Shown here in pieces: positions 1 through 30,442 of a DNA stretch of 54,487 bases (position 1 is the first letter of the stretch; each line of letters starts with the position of its first letter). Below the pieces are notes generated by a model, which was given only the letters and a program-made list of their open reading frames with translations, did no database searches and was not told the DNA's origin. A program made the position numbers and the translations under genes. This stretch comes from a virus (Duplodnaviria; Caudoviricetes): the IMG/VR virus record IMGVR_UViG_3300033148_005240, positions 1-54,487 of that record. One strand, written 5' to 3'.

Positions 1-159
1 GGTTTGAGAATTTACGCTCAAGGATATTATATTGGCAATGATTATGATAACGGTGAAAATTGTTGTAAAAAAATAATTTATTTTGAACCTTTAAAAAGAG
101 TTAATTTAAAACAGCCCAAAAAACCTCCAACAAGAGGATGGTGTTATATAAATGTCTAA
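1..159 (+). CDS. hypothetical protein, 5'-partial
   Basis: Open frame from base 1 (GLRIYAQGYY...PPTRGWCYINV) ending TAA at 157-159 and overlapping the next ATG; my own translation, not in the ORF track. Confidence 0.5.
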   Translation, partial: GLRIYAQGYYIGNDYDNGENCCKKIIYFEPLKRVNLKQPKKPPTRGWCYINV

Positions 160-355
160 ATATTGTATTTGTAATCCTATTTCTAGAGTATTTAATAAAA
201 AAGGAAATTGTAGTTTTTGTGACAAACCATTTAAAAGAATAGTGTTTAGAAGAACTTGGAAAAGAAAGCCCCAAACTCAAATCAAAAAAAGCGATAAAAT
301 ATATAATCGTAAAAAAGCGAAAAGAAAATTAAAGAAAAGATTAAAGGAGGAATAA
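152..355 (+). CDS. small basic Cys-containing hypothetical protein
   Basis: 67 aa with CxC...CxxC and a Lys/Arg-rich tail; AGAGGA upstream. Confidence 0.55.
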   Translation: MSKYCICNPISRVFNKKGNCSFCDKPFKRIVFRRTWKRKPQTQIKKSDKIYNRKKAKRKLKKRLKEE

Positions 356-495
356 TGATTATAAATATAATATTAATATTCATAGGAGTATTAGCGTATT
401 ATAAAGGATATTACGAAGGATATAAAAAAGCTAAATTTGATTTGGGATGTTCAACAAATAAACCGAAAGATATGAACTACGGAAAAAATAGATAA
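355..495 (+). CDS. small membrane protein (46 aa)
   Basis: TAATG coupling and AAGGAGG RBS; MIINIILIFIGVLAYYKGYYEG... has an N-terminal hydrophobic helix; my own translation. Confidence 0.55.
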   Translation: MIINIILIFIGVLAYYKGYYEGYKKAKFDLGCSTNKPKDMNYGKNR

Positions 496-514
496 GGAAA
501 GGAGGACAAAGATT

Positions 515-760
515 ATGTTGACAGGAAGAGATGCGACAGGAGATGCAAGGATTCTTGATAATTTAGCTAAAGGTAAAGATGGCGATGATTTACAGATTCA
601 ATTGCTTCGAGGAATAGTTAAAGGTGTATCATTAGTGATAAAGCTTTTGGTAAGCATACGAGGTAATCAAGTAGCTATTATGAAGAAAACAGGGGTAACG
701 CTAAGACAGCCTGAAGATAGGGATAAAGGTAAAAATAGCACCAATGATACAGAAAAATAA
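515..760 (+). CDS. hypothetical protein
   Basis: 81 aa ORF with a strong AAGGAGG RBS. Confidence 0.65.
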   Translation: MLTGRDATGDARILDNLAKGKDGDDLQIQLLRGIVKGVSLVIKLLVSIRGNQVAIMKKTGVTLRQPEDRDKGKNSTNDTEK

Positions 761-770
761 GGGAAATTAC

Positions 771-809
771 GCTGAAGTATAAGTCTTTAACAGAGATTTT
801 TACTTCAGC
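771..809 (+). terminator. stem-loop, probable terminator or processing hairpin
   Basis: GCTGAAGTA (771-779) pairs with TACTTCAGC (801-809), with inner AAGTCTT/GAGATTT pairing; directly after the stop at 760; U-tract is weak. Confidence 0.45.
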
Positions 810-852
810 TAACCTTATTATTGTTAAAAGAACAAAAGTTGGTTAGATACTA

Positions 853-882
853 TTGACAATGGGGATAGAAATATGATATACT
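853..882 (+). promoter_or_regulatory. sigma70-type promoter with extended -10
   Basis: TTGACA (853-858), 18-nt spacer containing TG at 874-875, TATACT (877-882); upstream of the long + strand gene run. Confidence 0.7.
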
Positions 883-1043
883 ATATAAGGGAGAGAGAAA
901 TAGATTGTAGACAATGTAAAAAAGGAAAATTAAGACTTGGGAATAATTTTCCTTATAGTAAAATTCTAGTTGTTTATTATAGATGTGATAATTGTGGACA
1001 CGAAATTAAAATAACTTATAGAAAAAATGAAGATAATAATTAA
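873..1043 (+). CDS. small zinc-ribbon protein (start uncertain)
   Basis: IDCRQCKKG...YRCDNCGHEIK has two CxxC; stop at 1041-1043; the only in-frame ATG lies inside the promoter. Confidence 0.45.
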   Translation: MIYYIREREIDCRQCKKGKLRLGNNFPYSKILVVYYRCDNCGHEIKITYRKNEDNN

Positions 1044-1218
1044 AGAAAATAAAGAACATTATTATTTAAATAAAGCTGAACAGAAATTTTTAGATACTAT
1101 TAGATTTAATTTTTTAAATAAAGAAATACAATCCTCTATTTTTAGAGATTTAATGTCTAATGCTGAAATTATAGATAAAGATAATAACATAAAAGAAAGA
1201 TTAAAAATAGGATTATAA
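1027..1218 (+). CDS. hypothetical protein
   Basis: 63 aa ORF abutting the next gene. Confidence 0.55.
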   Translation: MKIIIKENKEHYYLNKAEQKFLDTIRFNFLNKEIQSSIFRDLMSNAEIIDKDNNIKERLKIGL

Positions 1219-1494
1219 ATGAAAAATAAAGGTAGGAAAGCGGAAGAGCATTTTATTAAAACAATAAACAGCGGAGCATTTTTCCATGATGCAGATGCTA
1301 CTTCTGATAAATATGCTCTTGAACACAAATATACAGAAAAGAAAAGTTTTAGAATTACTACGGACTTATTAAAAAAAATACATAATGAAGCATTTGACCA
1401 AAACAAATTTCCTTTATTTGGTATTACAATTAAAGAAGGTGAAAGTCTTTGGATGTTAAAAGTAACCATCCTTAAAAAAACAGGAGGAATTTAA
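1219..1494 (+). CDS. Holliday junction resolvase-like PD-(D/E)XK nuclease
   Basis: KNKGRKAEE...SGA..DAD...LEHK pattern resembles Hjc-type phage resolvases. Confidence 0.6.
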   Translation: MKNKGRKAEEHFIKTINSGAFFHDADATSDKYALEHKYTEKKSFRITTDLLKKIHNEAFDQNKFPLFGITIKEGESLWMLKVTILKKTGGI

Positions 1495-1495
1495 A

Positions 1496-2626
1496 ATGAA
1501 GAAAATATGGACAAAAGAAAAACTTGATGTTTTAAAAATGTATTTAGAAGCTGGAGCTACTTATCGTGAAATCGCCCAAAAACTTAGTCTTACTTATGAC
1601 CAAGTAGAACATGCTGTGAGGAGATACGATTTAAGAGCAGGGGTTAGTAATACTCTCGTATTACCTAAAGATAAAAGTAAGCTAAAAAAAGACGATGTTA
1701 CAAAATTGGCTAGGCTTATCGGACAAAATATCTATGAGAATTATCGGACAATTCAATTGCGAGAGCCAAAAGCGTTAAAAAGTATAGCAAAAAGAGAAGA
1801 ACATTCTATTTTAGATATTTCAGATATTCATGGTGGAATGATTAATGAAGTATTCGACAGCAAATCTGGAAAGAAAGAGATAACCTATAATCAGAATATT
1901 TTTGAAAAAGAGCTTGCTAATTTACAAGAATCTGTATTTCAAATTCATGAAATCCTCAGAAACGCTTATAAATTAAAGGAATTAACTATTTTTTCTCTTG
2001 GCGACCTTATCACTAATGACCGTATATTTCCTGAACAAACTTTTGAAATAGAGAAAGTTGTTGGACTTCAGATATGGGATATGGTTGGATATTTAACTAA
2101 ATTTATCAACAACTTGCTTAAAATTTATGAAAAAATTACTTTTGTTGGAGTAGTAGGAAATCATGGAAGGTCAAATCCTACTCATTATAATGAACCAGTA
2201 GAAAATAATTTTGAATATTTTCTCTATAAAACTCTTCAGAAACAATTTGCCAATACCAAACGAGTAAATATAATCGTTCCTGAAACAAGACGATATATCC
2301 ATAAAATTTATGGTTGGAGACATCTTATAGAACATGGAGATAGTATGAGAGGGTCAAGTCGTAATTATATCGAAAAACAGATTAAAGACCTTAAATTAAA
2401 TGTAGGAGGTTTTGATGTTTTGCATTTTGGACACTTTCATAAATTAGAGGAAATGGAAATTTCTGATAGTGTAATAGTTAAACAGAATGGTTGTTGGATT
2501 CCAAAGGATAATTATGGTTTTAACAAATTTAAAAACTATAGTATACCTAAACAACATTTTTTTGGCTGTAATGTCAAACGCCCTGAAACATGGAGTTATA
2601 AAATAGATTTAAGAGTAGAACAATAA
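1496..2626 (+). CDS. HTH-fused calcineurin-like metallophosphoesterase
   Basis: N-terminal HTH (GATYREIAQKLSLTYDQV); motifs SDIH, GDL, GNHG, EHGD, GHFH. Confidence 0.8.
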   Translation: MKKIWTKEKLDVLKMYLEAGATYREIAQKLSLTYDQVEHAVRRYDLRAGVSNTLVLPKDKSKLKKDDVTKLARLIGQNIYENYRTIQLREPKALKSIAKREEHSILDISDIHGGMINEVFDSKSGKKEITYNQNIFEKELANLQESVFQIHEILRNAYKLKELTIFSLGDLITNDRIFPEQTFEIEKVVGLQIWDMVGYLTKFINNLLKIYEKITFVGVVGNHGRSNPTHYNEPVENNFEYFLYKTLQKQFANTKRVNIIVPETRRYIHKIYGWRHLIEHGDSMRGSSRNYIEKQIKDLKLNVGGFDVLHFGHFHKLEEMEISDSVIVKQNGCWIPKDNYGFNKFKNYSIPKQHFFGCNVKRPETWSYKIDLRVEQ

Positions 2627-2640
2627 AATAGGAGGAAAAA

Positions 2641-2880
2641 ATGAATAACCTTACTCCCCGAAGATACGAAAAAGTTGATGCGAATACAATAAAAATAATT
2701 GTAGAACAAGAGAAGGCTATTGATTTAGCTAATCTTATTGCAGGTAAAGACCAATTAACAGCACAGATAAAAGATTTAACTGAAAGATTAAAGAATATTG
2801 ATGAAATTATTGTAGAAGCAAAGAAGTTGGGTATTGTTCCTAAAGTTAAATCTAAAGATGTAAAAAAGAAAGGGAAATAA
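2641..2880 (+). CDS. hypothetical coiled-coil protein
   Basis: 79 aa, AGGAGG RBS, heptad-like middle. Confidence 0.65.
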   Translation: MNNLTPRRYEKVDANTIKIIVEQEKAIDLANLIAGKDQLTAQIKDLTERLKNIDEIIVEAKKLGIVPKVKSKDVKKKGK

Positions 2881-2881
2881 A

Positions 2882-3124
2882 TTGACAGCAGAAATAATTA
2901 AAATTACTAAACAAAGGTCAAAATTTGGAGGAGATGTATATCTGGTTTGTTTTAAATCTTTAATGGGAAAAAGTTATATTTCTTATATTGCTCCTAAGTT
3001 TCGTAATTTTAGTCGTTGGAAAAAAGTTCTTTCCGTAGGAATTACTTTAACTGGTCTTAAATTATCGAGTAAAGGTAAAAATCTTATTGATGCGGATAGT
3101 CGGTTTCAAACAGTAGGAAAATAA
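2882..3124 (+). CDS. hypothetical protein
   Basis: 80 aa, TTG start, packed between neighbours. Confidence 0.6.
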   Translation: MTAEIIKITKQRSKFGGDVYLVCFKSLMGKSYISYIAPKFRNFSRWKKVLSVGITLTGLKLSSKGKNLIDADSRFQTVGK

Positions 3125-3125
3125 T

Positions 3126-3806
3126 ATGAAGAAATGTTCTAAATGTAAAATCAAAAAACCTATTATCGAGTTTCGTAAAAACAAAACTACTAAAAATGGC
3201 TATACTTATTACTGTAAAGACTGTCTGAAACCTATAAATAAAAAAGACAGAATTAAACATAAAGAAAAAAGGAGGGAATATAGAATTAAATATAAGAAAA
3301 ATCACTACCAAGAAATTAAAAATAAAGAAAAGGAATATCGTTTAAAAAATCGAGATAAATTAAATTTAAAAAGCAAGAAATGGCGAGAAAATCATAAAAC
3401 ATATATTAGAAACTATAGCCAAAAACGAAAAAAGAGGCGAAATAAATATGAACGAGAAAGAAGGGAAAAAGATAAAACATTAAAATTAATTAATGCTATA
3501 AGAAAAAGAATGTGGGAAGTTTTAAAAGGAAAAAAGAAATCTTTTTCATCATTGAAATTATTAGGATGTTCTATAAAACAACTAAAACAGCATTTAAAAA
3601 ATCAATTCAAAATAGGAATGACTTGGGAAAATTATGGGAGAGGTTGGTATGATAGGCAAGAGTGGCAAATAGACCATATTCGTCCTTGTGCTTCTTTTGA
3701 TTTAAGTAAAGCAAGTGAACAAAGAAAATGTTTTAATTATAGTAACCTGCGACCCCTGTGGGCGAAGGAAAATTTAAGTAGAAGTAAAACGAGGAGAATA
3801 ATATGA
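3126..3806 (+). CDS. HNH-type homing endonuclease (paralog 1 of 5)
   Basis: N-terminal CxxC..CxxC; C-terminal GMTWENYG..WQIDHIRPCASFDL..CFNYSNLRPLWAKENL. Confidence 0.8.
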   Translation: MKKCSKCKIKKPIIEFRKNKTTKNGYTYYCKDCLKPINKKDRIKHKEKRREYRIKYKKNHYQEIKNKEKEYRLKNRDKLNLKSKKWRENHKTYIRNYSQKRKKRRNKYERERREKDKTLKLINAIRKRMWEVLKGKKKSFSSLKLLGCSIKQLKQHLKNQFKIGMTWENYGRGWYDRQEWQIDHIRPCASFDLSKASEQRKCFNYSNLRPLWAKENLSRSKTRRII

Positions 3807-4069
3807 GTATACATAAATCTTTAAAATCTAAACGGTTTCCTAAAATTCGCACTGTTCGAAAAAGATATGAACGTATTGAGAAACTTAAAAGAACTTTAAA
3901 ATGGGTAGAAGGAATGTCAATTTATGGATTGCCAAAAGAAATTATACGAAGATTAAAATGGAAAATCAAGAAAGAAGAAGTAAAAAAGGAAATAGTTCCG
4001 CTTTACGATTTTATACAGGAAGAGTCAAAGAAGAAGAAAACAAGTCGAGATATTGGTAAAATAAAATAA
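3803..4069 (+). CDS. small basic protein resembling the PVC-superphylum signature protein (TIGR04137-like)
   Basis: MSIHKSLK...RTVRKRYERIEKLK...W.EGMSIYGLPK fits the recalled consensus MSxHxSLK..R.V..R.ERI..L...W......GLPK. Confidence 0.7.
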   Translation: MSIHKSLKSKRFPKIRTVRKRYERIEKLKRTLKWVEGMSIYGLPKEIIRRLKWKIKKEEVKKEIVPLYDFIQEESKKKKTSRDIGKIK

Positions 4070-4522
4070 TGAAATTTTTAGTGTTAAATAGAAAAGAAAT
4101 GGAAACTTTTGAGACACATATGAAACATATTGTTATTTCTATATGTGCCCCCTGAAGCGAAACCTGTTGAAATTTTTTCAAACAATCCTCCAGAAGGGAT
4201 TTTATATTTAAGATTTCCAGATTTTGATGAACCATATATAAAAGGTTATCCATATAATTATTTATTATTTGATGAATATAATACTAAAGATATTTTAAGA
4301 TTTGTAACTAATTATAAAGATAAAGTAGAACTGATAATATGTCAATGTGAAGCAGGGGTTTCTCGCAGTGCTGGAGTTGCAGGGGCATTAAGTAGAATTT
4401 TAAATAGAAACGATTTTTATCGATTTGAGGTTTATAAAAGGAATGGTTATAGAACCTTAGTTATTTGGGAACATGAACTTAAAGATGAAAATAGATTAAA
4501 GAGAAAATTATTAGAATTTTAA
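4069..4522 (+). pseudogene. protein-tyrosine/dual-specificity phosphatase-like gene, frameshifted, with an endonuclease-like C-terminal tail
   Basis: The ATG 4069 frame (MKFLVLNRKE...HIVISICAP) stops at 4155; the 4130 frame carries CEAGVSRS (CX5R); removing one C from the C5 run at 4148-4152 joins them. Confidence 0.6.
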
Positions 4523-4534
4523 GGAATATGTAAT

Positions 4535-5401
4535 ATGAAAATTTTAATTTGTGGAGATTCTCATATTTCTGAGAGAAGTATACCTGAACTAACAGAAGTC
4601 TTTAATGAAATATTAAAAATCAAAGCAGATAGGTTTGTGCAATTAGGTGATTTCTTTGAGCATAATAGACCAACCCCTGCGGAGTTGAGATTTGCCAGTT
4701 CTATCGTAAAAAAATTAAAAAAGAAATTTAAAGATGTTACTATTATTTCTGGCACTGGAACTCATGATTTATTACATGATATTTCAGTGATTGAATTTTT
4801 AAAAGAGTTAGATATTAATGCTGTTAAAGGGGATTATGTTAAAGATAATATATTGTTTGCTCATTACATGCTTCATGAATCCGTATTAGAGTATGGTTCA
4901 GGTAAATGTGGTATTAAAGATTTAGCAAAGTATAATTTTGTATTTTTAGGGCATCAACATAATCCACAAGATATAACAAAAAAAATATTTCATGTTGGTT
5001 CTGTAAGGTATCAAAATTTTAATGAAGTAGTCGATAAATTTAAAAGAGTAGCGATTTTAGAAAACGGTATTGTGAAATTTGTTCCTTTAAAATCTCCTTA
5101 TCCAATGATTGATGTTCATTCTTTAGAAGAATTAAAAAAGATAGAACCTGGTAAAAAGAAAGTTAGATTAATTATAAATAGTTTCGAGCAATTTAAAAAA
5201 GAAGTAAATGAGATAGGACAATGGCGACATAAATTTAATGTGTTTAAGATAAAGTTAGATTTTAAAAACATGCCAACTACTAAACCTGAAAAAATTCTAT
5301 CACAATCTAAAAAATTAAAAGAAATTCTTATGGAAGGTATAAAAAAAGTTAAAGATGAAGATGTTCGCAAACTTTTAAAGGGGGTTTTAGATGAAAAATA
5401 A
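4535..5401 (+). CDS. sbcD: Mre11/SbcD-like DNA repair nuclease
   Basis: GDSH, GDFF, GTHD, AHY, GHQH and GS motifs; a Rad50-like gene lies downstream. Confidence 0.75.
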   Translation: MKILICGDSHISERSIPELTEVFNEILKIKADRFVQLGDFFEHNRPTPAELRFASSIVKKLKKKFKDVTIISGTGTHDLLHDISVIEFLKELDINAVKGDYVKDNILFAHYMLHESVLEYGSGKCGIKDLAKYNFVFLGHQHNPQDITKKIFHVGSVRYQNFNEVVDKFKRVAILENGIVKFVPLKSPYPMIDVHSLEELKKIEPGKKKVRLIINSFEQFKKEVNEIGQWRHKFNVFKIKLDFKNMPTTKPEKILSQSKKLKEILMEGIKKVKDEDVRKLLKGVLDEK

Positions 5402-6302
5402 ATTAACAAAATATATTAATGCTTGTAAAAAACTTATAGATATGCCTTATAATAAATTGAACCTTGAGAACTATAAAGGCAAAGTATTAAATGCTTATAA
5501 TTTAAAAACTCTTGAATTTATCGATACTAACCCAAAATTACCTATTAAATTAATGTCAAATCAACATGACAATGCTGGCATTATCAAATCCGTTGTTAAA
5601 CCTAATAAAAAAAGAAATATTTATATAGTAGGTAAAGGGATTCTGTTTGATGCAGGAGGGTATGATTTAAAACCAAGTGGTCGGATGGATGATATGAAAT
5701 GTGATATGAGTGGGATGGCTATTGCTTTTGCAGTGGCTTCTTATTTAAAAAATGATAATGTAATTGCCTATTGTCCTGTTTCAGTTAATTTAATTCCCAA
5801 TGGTATAACTCCAGGAGACCAAATTAAGATAGGAAATAAAGAAGTTGAAATAACCAATACAGATGCCGAAGGAAGATTAATTTTAGCCGAAGCATTAACT
5901 CATCTTTCTATCAAAAAGAACGATATAGTTATTACCGTAGCAACTTTGACAGGGGCTTGTGCTTATGCGTTAGGAGAAAAGGCAACTGCATTTATGACTC
6001 CGACCAAAGAGCTGACTAAGAAATATAAAATAGCAGGGGAGAAAGCTGGGGAGCTTTGTTGGCGTTTACCTCTTTGGGATTATTTACAAAAGAAATATTA
6101 TAACAAAAGAAGAATTCGAAACAGTATTAAGGAAATTAAAGCTGGCACTATAGAAGGAGGCTTATTTATCAAACAATTTGTTCCATTTCCTAAGAATTGG
6201 ATTCATCTTGATATTGCCTCAAGTGGCTATGATAATGTAAAAAATCGAGCAACTGGTGAGCCTATAAGAACCCTTGTCGAATTTATTAGAAGGATAAAAT
6301 GA
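5391..6302 (+). CDS. pepA: M17 leucyl aminopeptidase, essentially catalytic domain only
   Basis: VGKGILFDAGGYDLKP, MKCDMSG, NTDAEGRL, ATLTGA, HLDIA. Confidence 0.9.
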   Translation: MKNKLTKYINACKKLIDMPYNKLNLENYKGKVLNAYNLKTLEFIDTNPKLPIKLMSNQHDNAGIIKSVVKPNKKRNIYIVGKGILFDAGGYDLKPSGRMDDMKCDMSGMAIAFAVASYLKNDNVIAYCPVSVNLIPNGITPGDQIKIGNKEVEITNTDAEGRLILAEALTHLSIKKNDIVITVATLTGACAYALGEKATAFMTPTKELTKKYKIAGEKAGELCWRLPLWDYLQKKYYNKRRIRNSIKEIKAGTIEGGLFIKQFVPFPKNWIHLDIASSGYDNVKNRATGEPIRTLVEFIRRIK

Positions 6303-7051
6303 CCAAAAAACCAAAGAAAATTTTTACATCTGCGAATATAGAAAAACTATTAAGTAATCGATTTGCTCCTCCAGCTTGGGCATTTTTACCTCAAGTAAGA
6401 AATGGAACAGGTTATGCAAGAACAGCTAGAACAGCAGATGCAATTGCAATGAGTCTATATCCTAGTAGGGGATTATATTTAAATGGTTTTGAAATAAAAA
6501 TATCTCGTAGTGATTGGCTTAATGAATTAAAAAATCCAGACAAAGCAGAGGCAATTGCTAAATATTGTGATTATTGGTGGATTGTAGCTCCAAAAGATAT
6601 TGTTAAAATTGAAGAATTACCTTCTAATTGGGGTTTAATGATTCCTTTTGGTGCAACAACTAAAATTGTCAAAGAAGCAAAACAATTGAAATCAAAAAAT
6701 CCTGATAAGCTTTTTTTAGCAGGGGTATTAAGAAAAGCTCAAGAAGTAATTACTCCTACAGCAGAACTAAGAGAAGAACATAAAAAAGGATATGATTTAG
6801 GTAAAAATAATACAGAATCCAATTTTAAATGGGAGAAAGATGAACACAAGAAACTTAAACAGACAGTTCTTGAATTTGAACAAGCAAGTGGAGTTAAAAT
6901 AGATACTTGGCAAGATAGCAAGGAAATTGGAGAAGCTGTTAAATTAGTTTTGAATGGTGAATATCTTAGGATAAAGAAAAATTTACAACGATTACTTAAA
7001 AATGCCGAAGACATTGTTATTGATATAAAAGAAAATTTAGGAAAAAAATGA
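6299..7051 (+). CDS. PD-(D/E)XK nuclease, MmcB-like
   Basis: RTADAIAMSLYPSRG..GFEIKISRSDW..EL..PDK....YCDYWWIV. Confidence 0.65.
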   Translation: MTKKPKKIFTSANIEKLLSNRFAPPAWAFLPQVRNGTGYARTARTADAIAMSLYPSRGLYLNGFEIKISRSDWLNELKNPDKAEAIAKYCDYWWIVAPKDIVKIEELPSNWGLMIPFGATTKIVKEAKQLKSKNPDKLFLAGVLRKAQEVITPTAELREEHKKGYDLGKNNTESNFKWEKDEHKKLKQTVLEFEQASGVKIDTWQDSKEIGEAVKLVLNGEYLRIKKNLQRLLKNAEDIVIDIKENLGKK

Positions 7052-8484
7052 ATATAAAAACCATCAAATTAACTAATTTTAAGTGTTTTAAGGGGATTAA
7101 ATTCGCATTTGACCCAATGACTCTAATTAGAGGGAAAAATGGCGTAGGTAAGACCACAGCCACGCTGGAAGCCCTTTTATATACTCTATATGGCTACACG
7201 ACCAAAGAATTACTCTCTGATTTGCCTACAAGAGGAGTATCCAAATCTTGTGCTGTAGAAGTAGAATTTACTAGAAATAATCATACTTATATCGTAAAAA
7301 GAGCTTATCCTAGCAAGCTTTTTATTATTAAAGACGGTTCAGTAATTAAATTTAATACTACTGCGGAAGGAAATACTTTTTTAACTGAATTAGTAGGGTC
7401 AAGGGAATATTTTCAGAAATTTAGAGTTATAGATAAAGCTAAAGAAAGTAATCTTTTAGAGCAAGGTAATGTAGCTTTAAAGAGAATTATCTTTGCAGGT
7501 TCGGATGAAATTTTTAATAATATGAGGGTTAGATTATTAGAGATAAAAAGAAAGCGAGAACTCCTTAATAAAGATAGAGTAAAGGTCTCTTCTCATTATC
7601 CTTCAGAAAAAAGATTATCAGTGGTGACAAATAAAATGAAGGAATTAGAGGAACAAGAGACAGATTTGATTAAAACTATAAGAGAATTTGAAACTGATTT
7701 TCGTAAAACAGAAAGAGAAACAGGGAAATTAGAAAATGAAAAAGTCAATTATAATAATCGGAAAAATATATTAAATCGTCCTAGCAAGAAATGTTATGCT
7801 TGTGAACAACTTCTTCCTATTCCTAAAGCTAAAGAAATGTTAGAAGAAGCAAATAAAAAAATCAAAGAAATTAATAATTCTTTAGCAACTAAAAATTCTG
7901 AAATAAAAGAAATGAAAGACCTTATAAATTCTCATAGAACTATAAAAGGCAACATTTCCAATAAATTACAAACCTTATTTGAGTTAAGAAATGAATTAGA
8001 ATCTAGATTAAAGATGAAGGATTTTATTTACACTAATAAAGATGAAGAAATAGTTAAACAAGCGGTGAAAGAATTGGATAATATTTCTTCTTATTATTTA
8101 ACAAAAACTGTTAAAACTTTAACGCCAATAATAAATTCCATTTTACAAAAAATTAATTTTACAATTTCTTTTAATGTAAATAATAAAGGTAAATTTGCAA
8201 TTGAATTACAAAAACCCAATGCCATTTATAAATACAAAGACCTTAGTTGCGGTGAAAAAATCATGCTTCAAATTGCTTTTAAATTGGCTATACTTTTACA
8301 AAATAACGATACAGGTATTATCGTTGCAGATGAAGGGTTTGCTTCATTAGATGAAGATAATTTGCGACATATCTTAGAAATTTTTGAAGGTCTTCCTTTT
8401 CAGCTTTTATTAGTATTGCACCATGCTCCTGATTTAGGAGACAATATAAAAACAATAGATTTAAATAATGAAAAACAAAAGTAA
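7048..8484 (+). CDS. sbcC: Rad50/SbcC-like SMC ATPase
   Basis: Walker A GKNGVGKT, coiled coil, zinc hook CYAC, signature LSCGEK, Walker B VADEG, H-loop. Confidence 0.9.
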   Translation: MNIKTIKLTNFKCFKGIKFAFDPMTLIRGKNGVGKTTATLEALLYTLYGYTTKELLSDLPTRGVSKSCAVEVEFTRNNHTYIVKRAYPSKLFIIKDGSVIKFNTTAEGNTFLTELVGSREYFQKFRVIDKAKESNLLEQGNVALKRIIFAGSDEIFNNMRVRLLEIKRKRELLNKDRVKVSSHYPSEKRLSVVTNKMKELEEQETDLIKTIREFETDFRKTERETGKLENEKVNYNNRKNILNRPSKKCYACEQLLPIPKAKEMLEEANKKIKEINNSLATKNSEIKEMKDLINSHRTIKGNISNKLQTLFELRNELESRLKMKDFIYTNKDEEIVKQAVKELDNISSYYLTKTVKTLTPIINSILQKINFTISFNVNNKGKFAIELQKPNAIYKYKDLSCGEKIMLQIAFKLAILLQNNDTGIIVADEGFASLDEDNLRHILEIFEGLPFQLLLVLHHAPDLGDNIKTIDLNNEKQK

Positions 8485-9166
8485 ATATAATAATTATAGT
8501 AAAAATAAATATTGTAAATGTGGAAAATTGATTACTAATTTTGCAATGGACTGTAGAAAATGTGCCGATAGACAACATAGTTTACAAATGAAAGGGAATA
8601 AAAATTCTATGTATGGAAGTAAACGAATAGGTAAGGAAAATCCTTTCTTTGGTAGAAAACATAACGAAAAAACAAAGCAAATAATGAGAAAATTTCGTTT
8701 AGGTAAAAAACATACACAAAATACTATTAAAAAAATAAAAAAACACGCTACTAAATATTGGTTAAATAAAAAACGTCCTAAAAAAACTTGTCAAAAAATT
8801 AGCAAAACTCGAATAGTTCGTAAGGTTGCTAAAGGGAGAAAAAATCCTCATTTTGGAAAACCAGCTTCTCAAGCAAAAAAGATAATATACAAAAAGATTT
8901 TAATGAGAAGTTCTTGGGAAATAGCTTATGCCAAATGGTTAGATAAAAATAATATTAAATGGTCATATGAATCTAAAACTTTTGATTTAGGGAATTCTAC
9001 TTATACTCCCGATTTTTATTTACCTAAACAAAATAAATATATAGAAATTAAAGGATATTATAGAAAAAGTTTTATCAAAAAATTTCAAAGATTTAAAAAA
9101 TTATATCCAGAAATCAATATCCAAATTGAGAATAAAAAATTGTTAAAAAAAGAAGGAATAATTTAG
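8468..9166 (+). CDS. NUMOD3-repeat homing endonuclease with PD-(D/E)XK domain
   Basis: GKENPFFGRKHNEKTK-type repeats; MRSSWE..YAKWLD..W.YE..YTPDFYL..YIEIKG. Confidence 0.75.
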   Translation: MKNKSKYNNYSKNKYCKCGKLITNFAMDCRKCADRQHSLQMKGNKNSMYGSKRIGKENPFFGRKHNEKTKQIMRKFRLGKKHTQNTIKKIKKHATKYWLNKKRPKKTCQKISKTRIVRKVAKGRKNPHFGKPASQAKKIIYKKILMRSSWEIAYAKWLDKNNIKWSYESKTFDLGNSTYTPDFYLPKQNKYIEIKGYYRKSFIKKFQRFKKLYPEINIQIENKKLLKKEGII

Positions 9167-9169
9167 ATA

Positions 9170-9355
9170 ATGAATAAAATAAAACAAAGATTGGTTTGGT
9201 TATTACTATTGTCTACTTCTTTTTTAACATTGTTAATTTTAAATGGATTTAAGTGGAAATATTTTTCGAATCTCTTTAAAAATTACAAACAAGTTCTAAA
9301 AAAAGGTAGCAAATATACAGAAGATGGGGACTATTATTTAACTCGTAAAAACTAA
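9170..9355 (+). CDS. small membrane protein
   Basis: 61 aa with one hydrophobic helix. Confidence 0.55.
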   Translation: MNKIKQRLVWLLLLSTSFLTLLILNGFKWKYFSNLFKNYKQVLKKGSKYTEDGDYYLTRKN

Positions 9356-9486
9356 TGAAACATAAATTAATAAAATATAAAATACAATTAAAACAATTAA
9401 ATGAAATTATAGAGTATTTTATCAAAAAGAGATTTAAACTATTACAAAAAATAGCTAAAATAAAAAAGAAAGAACCAAGAAAATGA
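9355..9486 (+). CDS. small basic hypothetical protein (43 aa)
   Basis: TAATG coupling at the start and ATGA coupling at the end; my own translation. Confidence 0.4.
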   Translation: MKHKLIKYKIQLKQLNEIIEYFIKKRFKLLQKIAKIKKKEPRK

Positions 9487-9641
9487 ACCAATATTTTGAT
9501 ACAGAACGGATTGTTTGTTTGGCTTGTGGACATATATGGAAACTTAATTCAGATAAACCAATTACTGATGAACAACATTGGAATTGGGTAAGAGATATGC
9601 TAAGAGAACATAATGAAATAAAAAAAGGGAAAGATGAATAA
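9483..9641 (+). CDS. small hypothetical protein (52 aa)
   Basis: MNQYFDTERIVCLACGHIWKLNSDK...; overlaps both neighbours; my own translation. Confidence 0.5.
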   Translation: MNQYFDTERIVCLACGHIWKLNSDKPITDEQHWNWVRDMLREHNEIKKGKDE

Positions 9642-10709: not shown

Positions 10710-11430
10710 AAATTTTAGTTTTCAGGGAATTATTTATAGAATTTTTGTAATTTGTGTAAATGCCTTATTTTTTAAAGTTGGAGCTAAACAAGCCATGCAA
10801 AATTATGGAGCATTAGGGGCTTCTTTAATTTGGAACAGTATTAATATGGCATTATACTTTTTTTATCATGGGATATTTTTAAAATTATTTTCTTTAGAAA
10901 TTAAAACTAAAGGAGCAGTGGTTTGGTTTACTGGACTTCCTTGTTCGGGTAAAACTACTATTGCAGATGCAGTAGCAATTGTATTAAAAAAATTAGGAAA
11001 AAACGTGGAAAGATTAGACGGTGATGTTGTCCGTAAAGGGAAATTAAGTGATGATTTAGGCTTTTCACAAGAAGATAGGGATAAAAATATAAATAGAGTA
11101 AATTTTGTAAGCAAACTTTTATCAAGAAATGAAACTATAGTTTTAGCTTCTTTTGTTTCTCCTTATCGAAAAGTAAGAGATAAAATAAGAAAAAATGTTA
11201 TAAATTTTATAGAAGTTTATGTAGATACTTCTTCTGAAGAATGTGCTCGAAGAGATGTTAAAGGAATGTGGAAACTTGCTAAAGAAAAGAAAATAAAAAA
11301 TTTTACTGGTTATAATGCCCCTTATGAACGACCCTTTAAAAATGAGATTACTGTTTGGACTGAATTAGAAACCATAGAACAAAGCACTCAAAAAGTAATT
11401 AATTATCTTAAACAAAAAAAGCTTATATGA
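10684..11430 (+). CDS. cysC: adenylyl-sulfate (APS) kinase with an N-terminal membrane domain (DUF2061-like)
   Basis: VWFTGLPCSGKTT, LDGDVVR, DLGFSQEDR, SFVSPY, RDVKG, FTG..APYE; two hydrophobic helices at the N-terminus. Confidence 0.92.
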   Translation: MKKRKIHRRNFSFQGIIYRIFVICVNALFFKVGAKQAMQNYGALGASLIWNSINMALYFFYHGIFLKLFSLEIKTKGAVVWFTGLPCSGKTTIADAVAIVLKKLGKNVERLDGDVVRKGKLSDDLGFSQEDRDKNINRVNFVSKLLSRNETIVLASFVSPYRKVRDKIRKNVINFIEVYVDTSSEECARRDVKGMWKLAKEKKIKNFTGYNAPYERPFKNEITVWTELETIEQSTQKVINYLKQKKLI

Positions 11431-12122
11431 AAACTAAATTTTGTAGCAAATGCCATAAGAGAAAAAATATAATAGAATTTCATAAAGATAAAAATAGGAA
11501 ATACAGAAGACATGCTTATTGTAAAGAATGTAGACAAACTTTTAATATGAAAACTCGTAATAAATTAAGAAAAATAAATAAGAAAATATGTTGTCATTGT
11601 AAGCAAATTTTACCTTTAAATGCCTTTTCAAATGATAAATTATCTTTAGATAGTAAAACTTTTATATGCAAAAAATGTAAATATTATGTAGATAAAAAAT
11701 ATCGATTGACAAATAAAGAAAATATTAGAAAAAAGAAGAAAGAATATAAAATAAAAAATAGAACAAAAATATCTTTACATTCAAAAAATTATAATAAAAA
11801 GAAATATAAAATAAATTTAAATTTTAGATTGTTAAATATTTTGAGAAGTAGAATATACTTGGCATTAAAAGAAAAACATAAATCGTTGTCAACAATAAAG
11901 TTGATAGGTTGTTCCGTTAAAAAATTACGAAAATATTTAGAAAAACAATTTAAAAGAGGAATGACTTGGGGTAATTATGGTTTATATAGTTGGCATATTG
12001 ACCATATCAAACCATGTGCTTCTTTTGATTTAAGTAAAGTAAATGAACAGCAAAAATGCTTTAATTATAAAAACTTACAGCCCTTATGGGCAAAAGAGAA
12101 TTTAAGTAAGGGGAAATCATAA
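11427..12122 (+). CDS. HNH-type homing endonuclease (paralog 2 of 5)
   Basis: Four CxxC at the N-terminus; WHIDHIKPCASFDL..CFNYKNLQPLWAKENL. Confidence 0.8.
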   Translation: MKTKFCSKCHKRKNIIEFHKDKNRKYRRHAYCKECRQTFNMKTRNKLRKINKKICCHCKQILPLNAFSNDKLSLDSKTFICKKCKYYVDKKYRLTNKENIRKKKKEYKIKNRTKISLHSKNYNKKKYKINLNFRLLNILRSRIYLALKEKHKSLSTIKLIGCSVKKLRKYLEKQFKRGMTWGNYGLYSWHIDHIKPCASFDLSKVNEQQKCFNYKNLQPLWAKENLSKGKS

Positions 12123-14235: not shown

Positions 14236-15184
14236 ACAAATAACTTCTTTAAATATCACTTTTAATGAATGTTTAAATGCCATAGTAGATGTTTTAAAAG
14301 AACACGCTAAGAAGCGAGTTTTTATGCCATCTAAAGTAAGTATTACTCCTGAAGAAGGGATATTTTTCACATCAATGCCTTCTTATGTTCCGAAATATAA
14401 TATGTCAGGAATTAAATGGGTAAGTCGTTTTCCCAAAAATAGTAATAAAAATATTCCAAAAGTAATTAGCACTTATTTACTAAATGATATGATTACAGGG
14501 CATCCTTTAGCAGTAATGGAAGCTAGTTGGCTTACTGCTATGAGAACAGGAGCAATGGCTGGCTTAACTGCTAAATATTTTGCTATTCAAGAAGCCAAAA
14601 CCCTTTCAATTATAGGAGCAGGGGTGCAATCAGTAGCTTGTTTACAATTTATAAAATTACTGTGTCCCCAAATTAAGAAAATAAAAATTTATAGATATAA
14701 GAATACCACAATTCGATTTATTAAAAGATTTAAATCGTCAAAATTAATTTTTGAAATTTGTTCATCAATTAAAAAAACAATAGAAAATTCTGATATTATT
14801 TTAACAGCAACTACTTATGCAGATAAACCTTTTATCAATCCAGAATGGTTGAAACCAGGAATTTTAGCATTACCAATTCATCATAGAGGTTGGGAAAAAT
14901 GTGCTATGAAATTTGATAAAACTATTACAGATGATAAAAAACAAACTTTATATTATAAATCAAAAGGAGAATTTAGCGGAGGATTACCGACTATTTATGC
15001 AGAATTAGGCGAGATTATTTTAGGCAAAATAGCAAGGTCTAATAATAGAGAAAAAATTATAGCTTATAATATAGGAATAGCTATTTGCGACATTGCTTTA
15101 GCTAAAATAATATACGAAAAAGCAGTAAAAAAAGGAATTAAAAATCAACTTTTTAATGATTATAAAATAGGATTTTATTTATGA
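14216..15184 (+). CDS. ornithine cyclodeaminase/mu-crystallin family NAD(P)-dependent oxidoreductase
   Basis: MPSY..GIKWVSRFP, TG.PLAVM..LTAMRTGA, IIGAGVQ, DIILTAT, GIAICD. Confidence 0.88.
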   Translation: MIVLSHKQITSLNITFNECLNAIVDVLKEHAKKRVFMPSKVSITPEEGIFFTSMPSYVPKYNMSGIKWVSRFPKNSNKNIPKVISTYLLNDMITGHPLAVMEASWLTAMRTGAMAGLTAKYFAIQEAKTLSIIGAGVQSVACLQFIKLLCPQIKKIKIYRYKNTTIRFIKRFKSSKLIFEICSSIKKTIENSDIILTATTYADKPFINPEWLKPGILALPIHHRGWEKCAMKFDKTITDDKKQTLYYKSKGEFSGGLPTIYAELGEIILGKIARSNNREKIIAYNIGIAICDIALAKIIYEKAVKKGIKNQLFNDYKIGFYL

Positions 15185-16418
15185 AAAAGAAAATAATAGT
15201 ATATGCTAATGTAGTATGTGACATGCCTCATAGGGGACATATCGAATTTTTTCGAAAAGCAAAAGCTTTAGGAGATTATCTTATTGTAGGAGTGCATCCT
15301 GATAATATAACTCAAGAATATAAAAGAAAACCTATAATGTCTTATGAAGATAGGCTAGAAATTTTAAAGTCAATTAAAGAAATAGATTTGGTAATTAAAG
15401 ATTGTAGAGATAAAGAATCTCCTACAATATACGAAAATTTAAAAAAATATAATGTCGATATAATAGTTCATGGAGACGATTTCATACCTTCTTATACAAA
15501 AAAAGTAGAAGAGATGGGAATAAAACCGATATTAGTTCCTTATTATCCAAATTTATCTACTACTAAATTACTACAAAATATTAGAAGCAAAAATACTCTA
15601 AAAAATGCTTTAAAAGAGAAAGAAAAATTAATAATAATATCTGCTAATGATGCAATTACAGCGAAACTAGTAGAACAATATGGATTTGATGGGATTTGGA
15701 TTTCTTCCTTTGAAACAAGTGCTAGATTAGGATTAGTAGATAATGAAACTATAAATTTAACAGATATGATAAATATAGCTAGACCAATTGTAGAATCTGT
15801 AAATATTCCTGTTATAGTGGATGCCGATACAGGATAACAGTTAAAGAATTAGAAAAAATCGGAATATCTGCTGTTTGCATCGAAGATAATATATTTCCAA
15901 AATCTAATTCTCTTTGGGGAGACAAAATTCCTATAGCAGGTATGAAATTTTTCGGTGCAAAAATCAAAGCAGGAAAGGATATTCAAAAAACAAAATATTT
16001 TTGTATTGTAGCAAGAACAGAAGCTCTCATTAGAGGATATGGCAAAAAAGAAGCTTTAAAAAGAGCCAATTATTATGCAGATTGTGGTGCAGATTTAATT
16101 TTAATGCACAGTAGGGATAAAACTGGAAAAGAAGCATTAGAAATTCCTAAATATTGGAAAAGAAATATTCCTTTAATAATTATACCTTCTAAATTCCCAC
16201 AAATTACAAACAAACAATTATTTAAAGCAGGGTATTCTGTAATAATCTTTGCTAACCAAACTCAAAGAGCCAAAATATTTGGAGTTAAAAAAATATTACA
16301 GATATTGAAAACTAAACAAACTGCAAAATCATTGGAAAATTATATAGCAACTTTAGATGAATTTCGTAGTTTAACCCCAATAGAAGAAACAAAAAGAAGA
16401 AAATTAAAATATGAATAA
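15181..16418 (+). pseudogene. pepM: cytidylyltransferase-phosphoenolpyruvate mutase fusion, split by a frameshifting lesion at ~15835
   Basis: N-terminal TagD-type HRGH...STT domain, then GFDGIWISS..DADTG*; a second frame resumes ITVKELEKIGISAVCIEDNIFPKSNSL..VARTEALI..GADLILMHS. Confidence 0.85.
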
Positions 16419-21017: not shown

Positions 21018-22091
21018 ATGAAAATAATTACAATTTTAGGAACTAGACCCGAAATTATCAGGCTTTCTCGGATTATACCTAAACTTGATAAAGTTTGTAA
21101 ACATATTTTAGTGCATACAGGACAAAACTATGATAAAAATCTTAGCGATATTTTCTTTAGGGATTTAGGTCTAAGACAACCTGATTATTATTTGGGAGCT
21201 AAAGGAAGTATGGGCGAACAAATCGCTACAATTCTGCGAGAAGTTGAGAAGATATTTATGAAAGAGAAGCCAGATAAAGTTTTGGTATTGGGTGATACAA
21301 ATTCAGGATTATCTACAATTATAGCAGAAAGAATGAAAATACCCTGTTTACATATGGAAGCTGGTAATAGGGCAGGGGAACGCATACCAGAGGAGATAAA
21401 TAGGCATATTATAGATAGTGTATGCACTATTAATGCCCCATATACCGATAAATCTAAAGAAAATTTATTACGAGAAGGATTCAATCCTAAAAAAATAGTG
21501 GTATCAGGAAATCCGATATTAGAAGTAATTAACTACTATAAGCCACAAATCGATAAAAGCAATATATTAGAACAGTTGAATTTAAAAGCTAAACAATATA
21601 TGCTTGTTACTGTGCATCGTCAAGAAAATGTCGATGATGTAAAAAGATTTAATAAGATAGTTCAAGCATATAATTCGATAGCTGAAACAGGTATACAAGT
21701 TATTATTTCAACACATCCTCGCACTCGAAGTAAAATGAATAATTTAAAAATTAAAATACATCCAAATGTGAGATTTTTAGAACCTTTTGGATTTTTTGAT
21801 TTTATTACTCTTGAAAAAAATGCTAAAGTTATATTAACCGATAGCGGAACTGTTCAAGAAGAAGCTTGTATATTGCATATTCCTTGTGTTATAACAAGAA
21901 AAGCAACTGAAAGAATGGAAACTATTGAATGTGGAGCTACTATTTTGGCTGGAATAGAAAGTAAAAATATTTATGAAAGTTATAAGCAAGCAATGGAGAT
22001 GAATATAAATTGGATAGCACCTAAAGAATATTTGGATGAAGATGTAAGTGATAAAATTATTAATTATCTTTCAAATAAATGGGAATATTAA
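21018..22091 (+). CDS. wecB: UDP-N-acetylhexosamine 2-epimerase, non-hydrolysing (FnlC/CapG/WecB-like)
   Basis: GTRPEIIRL, HTGQNYD, LGDTNS, HMEAGNR, PEEINR, HRQEN, TDSGTVQEE. Confidence 0.93.
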   Translation: MKIITILGTRPEIIRLSRIIPKLDKVCKHILVHTGQNYDKNLSDIFFRDLGLRQPDYYLGAKGSMGEQIATILREVEKIFMKEKPDKVLVLGDTNSGLSTIIAERMKIPCLHMEAGNRAGERIPEEINRHIIDSVCTINAPYTDKSKENLLREGFNPKKIVVSGNPILEVINYYKPQIDKSNILEQLNLKAKQYMLVTVHRQENVDDVKRFNKIVQAYNSIAETGIQVIISTHPRTRSKMNNLKIKIHPNVRFLEPFGFFDFITLEKNAKVILTDSGTVQEEACILHIPCVITRKATERMETIECGATILAGIESKNIYESYKQAMEMNINWIAPKEYLDEDVSDKIINYLSNKWEY

Positions 22092-22092
22092 G

Positions 22093-22734
22093 ATGAAAAG
22101 AAAAAAATGCACTTGTTGCAGAAAATTAAAAAAGTTATCCCAATTTTCTATTCGTAAACAAAATAAAGATAATCATGATTCTTGGTGTCAAGAATGTTAT
22201 AGAATAAAAAGTAGGGAATATGGTAAAAAACATTTAAAACAAAAATTAGAATATAACAAAAAATGGAGGAAAGAAAATTCAGAAAAATATCATAAATCAA
22301 ATAAAGATTATTACGCTAAAAATAAAAAAATAATGAATAAAAGAGTTAAATTATGGAAAATAAATAATTCGAAAAAAGTTAAAAAATGGAGAATAAAAGA
22401 TTATAAATATAGAATAAATAATGATATAAGTTGGAAAATATTACGGAATTTACGAACCAGAATACATCATGCTTTAGTTCGTGAAACTAAAAGTAAACCG
22501 ACAATAAAATTATTAAACTGTTCTATAAAAAAATTAAAATATTATATACAAAAACAATTCAAAAAAGACATGACTTGGAATAATTATGGTAAATGGCATA
22601 TAGACCATATTAGACCTTGTGCTAGTTTTGATTTATCTAAACCTGAAGAACAAAGAAAATGTTTTAATTATAAAAATTTACAGCCATTATGGGGTAAAGA
22701 AAATCAATCAAAAGGGGCAAAATATGAAAAATAA
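22093..22734 (+). CDS. HNH-type homing endonuclease (paralog 3 of 5)
   Basis: Start moved to ATG 22093 (MKRKKCTCC); WHIDHIRPCASFDL..CFNYKNLQPLW. Confidence 0.8.
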   Translation: MKRKKCTCCRKLKKLSQFSIRKQNKDNHDSWCQECYRIKSREYGKKHLKQKLEYNKKWRKENSEKYHKSNKDYYAKNKKIMNKRVKLWKINNSKKVKKWRIKDYKYRINNDISWKILRNLRTRIHHALVRETKSKPTIKLLNCSIKKLKYYIQKQFKKDMTWNNYGKWHIDHIRPCASFDLSKPEEQRKCFNYKNLQPLWGKENQSKGAKYEK

Positions 22735-26383: not shown

Positions 26384-27051
26384 ATAAACCCATACAGTGC
26401 ATAATTCTAGGTGGAGGTTCAAGTATCCAGGAAGGGATAAAGAAAAATCTATGGTCTCGTATTAAAAATAAATTCGTTATAGGTATAAATTATTCTTATC
26501 ATCATTTTACCAATCCTACTTTTCAAGTTTATCTTGATTATAAATTTTATAATGGAAATAAAAAAGATGTTGATAATCTTCCTCTAATAATAACAAAACC
26601 AGGCAAACAATTACCTTCAAATACTATTCAAATTAAAACAATGTCCAATTACAAAAGAGATATTAGACAAGGTTGTTATAAAGGAAGTTTAAGTGGAATT
26701 TATGCGGTTTCATTAGGAATTTATTTACTTGATGTAGGGGAGATTTTTCTTTTAGGATATGATTTTTGTGGAATAGGAAAAGACAAAAAAGGTAGAGCAA
26801 AGACACATTATTATGAAAATATTGAACATAGAGGTAGGGGAAAAGTTAATTATTATAGTAATAAAACCAGATGGAATAAAGATTTTGCTCCATTTATAAA
26901 TGAAAAAAAAGTTAAAATTTATAATGTAAGTTTACAATCTAAAATCACAAATTTCCCTAAAATTTCATATGACCAGTTCTTTAAAATGTTAAATGGGCAG
27001 GGGTTTGACCAAAAACAGTTAAGACAATATATTAAGGAAAAATTAAAATGA
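26380..27051 (+). CDS. Maf/sialyltransferase-like (DUF115-type) transferase
   Basis: Start moved to ATG 26380; CIILGGGSS, GIN, SG.YAVSL, IFLLGYDF, HYY, IYNVS. Confidence 0.6.
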   Translation: MNKPIQCIILGGGSSIQEGIKKNLWSRIKNKFVIGINYSYHHFTNPTFQVYLDYKFYNGNKKDVDNLPLIITKPGKQLPSNTIQIKTMSNYKRDIRQGCYKGSLSGIYAVSLGIYLLDVGEIFLLGYDFCGIGKDKKGRAKTHYYENIEHRGRGKVNYYSNKTRWNKDFAPFINEKKVKIYNVSLQSKITNFPKISYDQFFKMLNGQGFDQKQLRQYIKEKLK

Positions 27052-30219: not shown

Positions 30220-30238
30220 TATCTTTTTATTTTTCTTA

Positions 30239-30442
30239 TTAGTCCTTATAGATTGCATAATGTTTCCAAGTTTTACTAATTCCATCAAAAACCTTATCGA
30301 CATTATCCCAATAATCAAAATTCCCGATTTTTGAATGAGGATTTTTTATACCATTTTCCACTATTTCTGATAATTCTTCCATTCTAGCCAGTAAAAATTC
30401 ATTTTGTTTTTTTAACAATTCCAATTGTTTCTTTATTGTCAT
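30239..30442 (-). CDS. hypothetical protein
   Basis: 67 aa with a GAGGA RBS. Confidence 0.55.
   Translation of the reverse strand: MTIKKQLELLKKQNEFLLARMEELSEIVENGIKNPHSKIGNFDYWDNVDKVFDGISKTWKHYAIYKD

Follow-up and report, generated by a model that had tools for sequence, protein, structure and literature searches.

The DNA described here is IMG/VR virus record IMGVR_UViG_3300033148_005240 (Duplodnaviria; Caudoviricetes), a single linear contig of 54,487 bases that we refer to, at its full length, as the window. Near its left end, at positions 3803–4069 of the plus strand, lies a gene for a small basic protein of 88 residues, with an ATG start codon and a TAA stop codon (4067–4069) in the list of open reading frames (ORFs). 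Start and upstream stop codon share bases (ATGA, 3803–3806), the stop being that of the preceding nuclease gene, and inspection of the sequence finds a Shine-Dalgarno-like GAGGAG hexamer at 3791–3796 (plus strand), six bases 5′ of the ATG. Two parts of the protein can be told apart: a conserved N-terminal core of residues 1–45 (3803–3937, plus strand), which is the part matched by the NCBIfam profile TIGR04137 and is delimited also by its conserved residues and its AlphaFold2 (AF2) model, and a virus-specific C-terminal tail motif, KKKKTSRDIGKIK, of residues 76–88 (4028–4066, plus strand), which is picked out by motif counts and is modelled by AF2 with a predicted local distance difference test (pLDDT) value below 50. 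The ORF is a genuine tailed-phage gene with the look of one that is expressed. Judged by its residues, the product is a diverged viral version of the signature small basic protein (CT421.2/TIGR04137) of the superphylum of Planctomycetes, Verrucomicrobia and Chlamydiae (PVC).

When the 88-residue protein is compared with NCBIfam by hmmscan, TIGR04137.1 is the sole family at E ≤ 10, matching with an E-value of 3.9e-14 and 52.2 bits, a narrow margin over the curated cut-off of 50. The alignment places residues 1–45 on positions 1–46 of the 50 positions of the profile, which carries the name ‘Chlam_Ver_rRNA’, small basic protein, and the model type hypothetical equivalog. A six-frame search of the window DNA with the same profile gives 52.3 bits, and none of 14 control genomes exceeds the cut-off; Pfam and PHROGs return sub-threshold noise only for the 88-residue protein. 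The protein retains Met1, Ser2, Ser6, Leu7, Arg16, Val18, Arg21, Glu23, Arg24, Trp34, Gly42, Leu43, Pro44 and Lys45, as well as His/Asp at position 4, all of which are invariant or nearly invariant columns of the 110-row alignment A3 and the 24-row alignment A1; conservation of this extent lies far beyond the level of chance. With an isoelectric point of 10.45 and a net charge of +19, the protein fits the family in size and basicity (about 50 to 120 residues), the cellular members in the loci examined being 49 to 127 residues long. The sequence-only reading of this DNA had quoted the protein, named its family and called it phage-borne. The quoted letters agree one for one with the first 45 residues of the ORF translation, the family assignment passes the profile search that had been proposed for it, and the DNA is viral, being an IMG/VR virus record with phage genes around the small basic protein gene.

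Within the family, the viral proteins form a monophyletic subfamily under purifying selection, with substitutions of their own. Alignment A3 contains 110 rows picked from about 190 distinct sequences, with mostly Planctomycetota rows dropped. Its position 19 is Leu in 78 of the 81 cellular rows and Arg, His, Asn or another residue in all 29 viral rows (Arg in the window), position 12 is aromatic in viral rows and Leu, Gly or Asp in cellular rows, position 30 is Arg or Leu in viral rows versus Glu, Asp or Lys in cellular rows, and position 35 also discriminates. Position 46 is Glu in every viral row versus Val, Ile or Thr in cellular rows, a difference that is circular because the rows had been sorted by this very position. 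In addition, the viral subfamily has a loop one residue shorter than that of cellular members, and the tail motif [ST][RK]D[DVI] (or KNKD[IV]) is found in 16 of 30 distinct viral-type proteins versus none of 160 other family members, about half of the subfamily ending in a C-terminal KKKTS[RK]D tail. Because the hydrophobic residues typical of the family at positions 19 and 46 are replaced, we file the protein as a member of a diverged viral subfamily and not as an equivalog. The ratio of nonsynonymous to synonymous substitution rates (dN/dS, Nei–Gojobori; 14 viral genes, 62 gap-free codons, 64 of 91 pairs with usable dS) has a median of 0.23, and pairs that include the window range from 0.09 to 0.38, with two further window pairs saturated; since dS is itself saturated (median 1.6), the figure is a rough one.

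Of 43 candidates from a word-indexed protein search, 33 reach E ≤ 0.001; 14 of these 33 (P0002–P0015, 76–95 residues) are similar to the window protein along most of its length, and the remainder are of cellular type (72–105 residues). A scan of metagenomes yields 76 loci, and in 20 of these the core is followed by LPKE, at a guanine-plus-cytosine (GC) content of 0.27–0.33 except for one locus at 0.39. Phage genes like those of the window stand alongside in 16 of the 20 LPKE loci versus none of the 56 others, whereas the Omnitrophota neighbourhood (SPOR, SH3, aroB and GNAT) is present in 29 of the 56 and in none of the 20. In the loci found, the viral type is restricted to low-GC, phage-like contigs. 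In Omnitrophota the gene sits in a string that reads SPOR-domain gene, small basic protein gene, SH3-domain gene, aroB and GNAT (L103, L106, L108, L125 and L130), the string that recurs in the 29 metagenome loci; among the Omnitrophota loci examined, the SPOR-domain gene is present in 16 and aroB in 12, and the neighbours of the signature gene in Planctomycetota are variable.

Each of the 19 proteins in the viral alignment A2 matches TIGR04137 at E ≤ 0.001. The A2 profile gives 119–122 bits with viral records, 66.3 bits with one Omnitrophota genome, 59.5 with a Brocadiaceae genome and 55.4 with a Thalassoglobus genome; that the Omnitrophota genome scores higher than these two Planctomycetota genomes speaks for the Omnitrophota side of the family. 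In a sample of 301 Omnitrophota genomes it finds a match in 280 and, because the best of these reaches only 72.9 bits, no viral-type copy; likewise, none is present in 80 genome-contig loci. Run against 1.84 billion cluster representatives, the profile has 799 matches at E ≤ 0.001, of which 93 reach E ≤ 1e-10. Among the best 150 representatives (50% identity), 26 carry LPKE, including P0225, which otherwise looks cellular, and four more are variants beyond the pattern; the viral clade is diverse, comprising about 30 clusters at 50% identity. A tblastn search of 50,697 INPHARED phage records gives no match to the 88-residue protein, and the nearest clusters in the ESM Atlas, taken as leads only, belong to the cellular family from Planctomycetota and Omnitrophota.

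Four IMG/VR contigs with GC contents of 0.27–0.28 (L001, L082, L083 and L084) carry a homologue of the small protein, and the viral type is found also on the longer contigs L113 (52,158 bp), L120 (108,997 bp) and L123 (109,022 bp). L083, which is part of the linear 54,640-bp record G004 (58% complete), is syntenic with the window from the exonuclease gene through the small protein gene to SbcC, and L082 is likewise syntenic. L084 is part of G005, a 100,617-bp record labelled by IMG/VR as a provirus and as 100% complete. G005 has the structural arm in common with the window and encodes, in addition, a family-B DNA polymerase, a primase, a clamp loader and a nucleotidyltransferase; its GC content is uniform (0.26–0.33), it has no tRNA gene, and its copy of the small protein gene sits between SbcD-like and SbcC-like genes. 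No host flank is recognisable in the ~3.9 kb of contig past the trimmed end of G005 (in L120), where the sugar-modifying genes resemble those of the window's own glycan block, and the provirus label may be an artefact of host-like genes. We note that this stretch (L120 12217–16141) holds a 358-residue ORF together with ORFs that are short-chain dehydrogenase/reductase-like, cytidylyltransferase-like, LicD-like and MurB-like, names taken from the translations and not from hidden Markov model (HMM) matches.

With a conserved 414-residue structural protein as bait, five IMG/VR records are recovered, of which G408 and G409 have direct terminal repeats and are 100% complete. G409 (89,485 bp) has a divergent 71-residue copy of the small basic protein at 29711–29914, which lacks Trp34 and to which the viral profile gives 47.8 bits and TIGR04137 33.6 bits; G408 (104,368 bp) gives no match to the small basic protein. 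Three further fragments from the bait search (26–52% complete) also give no match, which has little weight. The gene is widespread but not universal in the phage clade, because G408 is without a match and the copy in G409 is divergent. The complete or near-complete related records measure 89–104 kb, two of them with direct terminal repeats, and the window is a fragment of a tailed phage of roughly 90–110 kb.

The window itself has a GC content of ~28% (0.25–0.35) and a CheckV completeness of 35%, and its genes are arranged as two converging arms. The plus arm opens with a nuclease and recombination block, comprising an SbcD/Mre11-like exonuclease (1496–2626; phrog_284, E 2e-37; a member of the conserved module, 89% identical in L083), the endonuclease VII/HNH-type nuclease gene (3126–3806; phrog_1035, endonuclease VII, E 5.4e-12; phrog_2255, HNH endonuclease), the small basic protein gene, a split phosphatase-like gene (4069–4522; phrog_5614 and a weak DSPc match) and an SbcD-like metallophosphoesterase (4535–5401; Pfam Metallophos, E 8.5e-9; kept in L083/G004). 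The block continues with an M17 peptidase domain, a DNA-repair-like protein, an SbcC-like ATPase/nuclease subunit (7048–8484; phrog_77, E 2.9e-32; 62% identical in G004) and a protein with T7 endonuclease I and I-TevI-finger matches; the genes given here with coordinates are all on the plus strand. The small basic protein gene lies inside this phage block and not on a host flank, because it overlaps a phage nuclease gene start to stop, has the same neighbourhood in L082 and L083, is flanked by SbcD-like and SbcC-like genes in G005, and is distributed among the loci as counted above.

The minus-strand structural arm (27546–53899) includes the tail tape measure protein that marks it (35169–37850, minus strand; phrog_28, E 4.9e-15), together with weak tail-fibre and lectin-like matches, and the whole arm is collinear with positions 5–33 kb of G005. 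Five of ten large window proteins scanned have no PHROG family, and no PHROG or Pfam family for terminase, portal or HK97-type capsid is recognised among the large structural-arm proteins scanned of this fragment, so the phage is distant from cultivated phages. The conserved 414-residue structural protein has no INPHARED match, and its AF2 model (six sequences) has a pLDDT of 34 and is unusable. No terminal repeats or tRNA genes are found in the window, and an Rfam scan of it finds no RNA family. A sigma-70 promoter scan of positions 1–9500 is uninformative (52 sites versus 52.5 expected), as are terminator-like sites (3 versus 2.8).

Several other features of the window were observed in passing. 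The phosphatase-like gene consists of a 28-residue piece starting at ATG 4069 and a 130-residue ORF at 4130–4522, with an apparent frameshift at a run of C near 4143–4147; its orthologue in L083 (10380–10808) is one intact 142-residue ORF starting MKFLVL, and the split could be an assembly error or a genuine frameshift. The M17 (leucyl) aminopeptidase catalytic domain in the nuclease block (5391–6302, plus strand; Pfam E 2e-62) is without the usual N-terminal domain. Five paralogues share an endonuclease VII/HNH-type C-terminal domain, at 3126–3806, 11427–12122 and 22048–22734 on the plus strand and at 29638–30318 and 37854–38417 on the minus strand; they are spread over both arms, one amid the tail genes, and are homing-endonuclease-like in this respect. 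A Peptidase_C92 match at 27048–27530 was considered as an endolysin and set aside (28.2 bits versus a cut-off of 27, with a different family name in PHROGs), and is not host evidence.

Between 9634 and 26383 on the plus strand lies a ~17-kb block of host-like sulfate, phosphonate and sugar genes, in appearance a cassette carried by the phage for glycans decorated with phosphonate and sulfate. It contains two sulfotransferases, an adenosine 5′-phosphosulfate kinase, two cytidylyltransferase domains, a class-V aminotransferase and an ornithine cyclodeaminase-like protein; a phosphoenolpyruvate mutase in two pieces (15181–15837 and 15942–16418) and pieces of a thiamine pyrophosphate enzyme (phosphonopyruvate decarboxylase-like); and two LicD proteins, a family-2 glycosyltransferase (GT2), a UDP-GlcNAc 2-epimerase, Polysacc_synt_2 and RmlD-like proteins, and GT90-like and other sugar transferases. 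Near the contig end, at about 54350–54361, a run of twelve C followed by TCCGTCGGGGGTGG stands in sequence of otherwise 28% GC; it may mark a site connected with packaging or have arisen as an artefact at the end of the assembly.

The phylogeny of the family was examined in a quick IQ-TREE tree of 184 distinct rows and 62 columns, drawn from 207 sequences that were trimmed to residues 1–62 and cleared of duplicates and of rows containing X. All 30 viral rows fall into a single clade with a Shimodaira–Hasegawa-like approximate likelihood ratio test (SH-aLRT) support of 93. On one side of a branch supported at 96 are this clade, 41 Omnitrophota-type rows, 14 short T-type rows (~50 residues) and 3 others, on the other the Planctomycetota side of the tree, and the viral clade is sister to the whole of this 58-row cellular group with a support of 82. 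When the viral rows are held together with five low-GC Omnitrophota-type rows, the log-likelihood is 73 above that of the free quick tree, with a P-value of 0.988 in the approximately unbiased test (p-AU). The earlier reading had called for a phylogeny against PVC homologues, and its outcome is that the viral clade stands on the Omnitrophota side and outside the sampled cellular groups. The proposal that the host is a PVC bacterium is borne out in part: the tree places the viral clade in the half that contains Omnitrophota, and the link comes from one gene, with no independent line found that joins phage to host; a cluster look-up of ten viral-type proteins yields no names.

The interpretation we favour, and hold as a whole to be somewhat better than evenly balanced, is that a gene of PVC origin is carried by a clade of phages with PVC hosts, in which its product replaces or competes with the host protein. 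An ancestor of the phage clade would have acquired the gene from a PVC bacterium, most likely an Omnitrophota-like one, and such bacteria would be the hosts. The phage protein would keep the conserved head that binds the nucleic-acid target of the cellular protein, and the changed positions and the tail may allow it to replace, or compete with, the host protein in infection with a different output, by analogy with phage bS21; it would probably be produced together with the replication and recombination genes. Taken by itself, a PVC bacterium is the probable host, and an Omnitrophota-like host is about an even call.

As to the target, the cellular signature protein reportedly binds nucleic acids in general, in gel shifts attributed to Lagkouvardos and colleagues in 2014. 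The AF2 model, computed from 110 sequences, has pLDDT values of 84–91 over residues 1–50 and consists of a single helix (residues 21–31) in an otherwise extended chain, followed by a disordered tail. The extended model and the retention of the protein in very small genomes fit a protein that would become ordered on a large nucleic-acid partner. Searches of the PDB by sequence and by profile give nothing significant (best E-values 0.27 and 8.8), and fold searches with the AF2 model give no fold assignment (no matches in Foldseek; a best Z of 2.3 in the wide VIA-align search). One candidate similarity, between the family core (A3 positions 24–60, ERIxxL...W...YGLPK) and the helical hairpin of Bacillus subtilis uS2 residues 101–137 (PDB 6htq_b), is non-significant (E 8.8) and was not counted. 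CT421.2 ranks with the most highly expressed C. trachomatis genes (PMC5541142). We regard structured RNA or the ribosome as the most likely single target, at somewhat less than an even chance, and DNA or the nucleoid as the next, on a clearly lower footing.

The alternative that survives best accepts the same origin and host and has the protein act on DNA, as a nucleoid-associated or recombination accessory factor co-expressed with the exonuclease, SbcCD and endonuclease module. We think this improbable, though worth keeping in view. It draws on the conserved place of the gene, which in the window, G004 and G005 lies between or beside genes of SbcD-like and SbcC-like type, on the overlap of its start with the endonuclease VII/HNH gene, and on the cellular neighbours, which show no ribosomal link: Rfam finds no rRNA adjoining the gene at 12 T-type loci, and a single RNase P RNA only. 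Phage gene order often mirrors timing and not partnership, however, and the universal retention of a basic protein of ~50 residues in very small genomes, its high expression and the extended AF2 model are more reminiscent of small ribosomal proteins than of known nucleoid proteins, although this is not decisive.

A second alternative, unlikely in our judgement, places the phage in a host outside the PVC group, such as another AT-rich sediment bacterium or an archaeon, with one horizontal acquisition of the gene and a generic role for a basic DNA- or RNA-binding protein of the phage genome, such as compacting it, or taking part in its replication or in recombination alongside the adjacent SbcCD-type nucleases. 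Of the following observations, which weigh against the interpretation favoured above, some also speak for this alternative. No gene other than that for the small basic protein supplies a host link. None of 401 sampled Omnitrophota genomes matches the conserved structural protein, and neither the window nor G005 has a tRNA gene for host inference. The GC content of the phage lies below that of every cellular family locus seen (0.33–0.75), and none of the sampled cellular groups has the viral clade nested within it. Holding the viral rows with five Planctomycetota rows lowers the log-likelihood by 20 and is not rejected (p-AU 0.317). The tree has only 62 columns, its quick search is clearly not optimal, both constraint groups were chosen after inspection of the tree, AT-rich composition may attract rows, and the sample is without named Chlamydiota, Verrucomicrobiota or Lentisphaerota sequences. 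Other viral copies fall under the TIGR04137 cut-off (42.7 bits in G005, 41.1 in G004 and 33.6 in G409), and the saturation of dS belongs here as well. The gene is not core to the phage clade, being dispensable in G408 and weak in G409; it always stands amid DNA-metabolism genes, a place equally compatible with a DNA-binding role; and a ribosome link of the cellular protein is not found in the literature searched, the PDB or the gene neighbourhoods examined. To these the non-PVC alternative adds the family-B polymerase of G005, which is ~23% identical to its best INPHARED matches (haloarchaeal tailed viruses and T4-like cyanophages), and the sugar epimerase gene, whose named relatives are a mix of archaea and bacteria; the latter was tried as a host marker and rejected as not taxon-informative.

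Set against a non-PVC host is the distribution of the family, which appears in our searches only in PVC genomes or these viral contigs and which is reported to be the one protein common to and restricted to the PVC phyla, with about 53 residues in Chlamydiaceae and over 80 in Planctomycetes (PMC3444138). Across about 30 clusters at 50% identity, purifying selection has preserved the conserved head together with its invariant N-terminus, which suggests a specific partner rather than bulk charge. In addition, genes of bacterial type are present (T7 endonuclease I/I-TevI finger, LicD, and MurB-like in L120). A third alternative, that the contig is cellular or chimeric and carries the chromosomal signature gene of an unsampled low-GC PVC bacterium beside a prophage, could appeal to the provirus label of G005, the ~17 kb of host-like genes and the missing terminal repeats of the window, but is very improbable and largely refuted by the phage nuclease genes on both sides with overlaps or short spacers, the synteny in L082 and L083, the homologue in the complete terminal-repeat genome G409, the uniform GC content of G005, its lack of tRNA genes and the glycan-like genes past its trimmed end, the absence of the cellular neighbourhood from all 20 viral-type loci, and the absence of a viral-type copy from the 301 Omnitrophota genomes and the 80 genome-contig loci.

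The favoured interpretation, a PVC-derived gene in phages of PVC hosts, can be taken a step further, to a version that we offer as speculative: the signature protein would be a lineage-specific component of the translation apparatus, or a close partner of it, and the phage version, encoded by a diverse clade of AT-rich sediment phages of roughly 90–110 kb and switched in specificity (L19R, V46E, aromatic residue 12 and a new KKKTS[RK]D tail), would displace it to reprogramme Omnitrophota-like hosts. If this were true, uncultivated phages could for the first time be assigned to PVC/Omnitrophota hosts by a sequence marker, this gene, and the viral proteins would constitute a natural ‘mutant series’ for finding the binding partner of the signature protein. 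More generally, the signature protein is not strictly cellular, which is relevant to its use as a taxonomic marker in metagenomes, and the viral gene is a candidate for marking the hosts of phages that infect Omnitrophota-like bacteria, a group of phages whose hosts are hard to assign. Positions 12, 19, 30 and 46 and the tail are where the virus altered the protein while retaining the head, and may guide binding and competition experiments. The earlier reading took the family to be undescribed in phages, and the searches of the literature turned up no such description.

Compared with the PVC signature protein, the phage protein has an HMM match over the whole core and the same invariant residues from Met1 to Lys45, and is similarly small and strongly basic; like the Planctomycetota and Omnitrophota members, it continues past the core in a charged tail of variable sequence. 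Unlike the cellular gene, which is chromosomal, the phage copy is virus-encoded and belongs to a separate clade, and it lies outside the SPOR–aroB context of Omnitrophota. The two differ also in sequence: Leu19 is replaced by Arg, His or Asn, and Val, Ile or Thr46 by Glu, position 12 is aromatic, the loop is one residue shorter, and the tail is Lys/Glu-rich with a KKKTS[RK]D end, whereas the cellular tails are Ala/Glu/Lys-rich; most viral members fall under the curated cut-off.

Phages are described as encoding ribosomal proteins, most notably bS21 (Mizuno et al. 2019, PMC6375957; Chen et al. 2022, PMC9723584). Like phage bS21, the protein of the window is a small, basic, putative nucleic-acid-binding housekeeping protein of a host lineage, encoded by large uncultivated phages and conserved within clades, and phage bS21 is proposed to aid the takeover of a core host machine. 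Unlike bS21, the signature protein is not a known ribosomal protein, and the two are unrelated in sequence. Expression in the bS21 phages is reported to be tied to late-stage replication, whereas the window gene stands in a replication and recombination block. In sum, the phage copy of the PVC signature protein would extend the theme of phage-carried small basic housekeeping proteins past the known ribosomal proteins.

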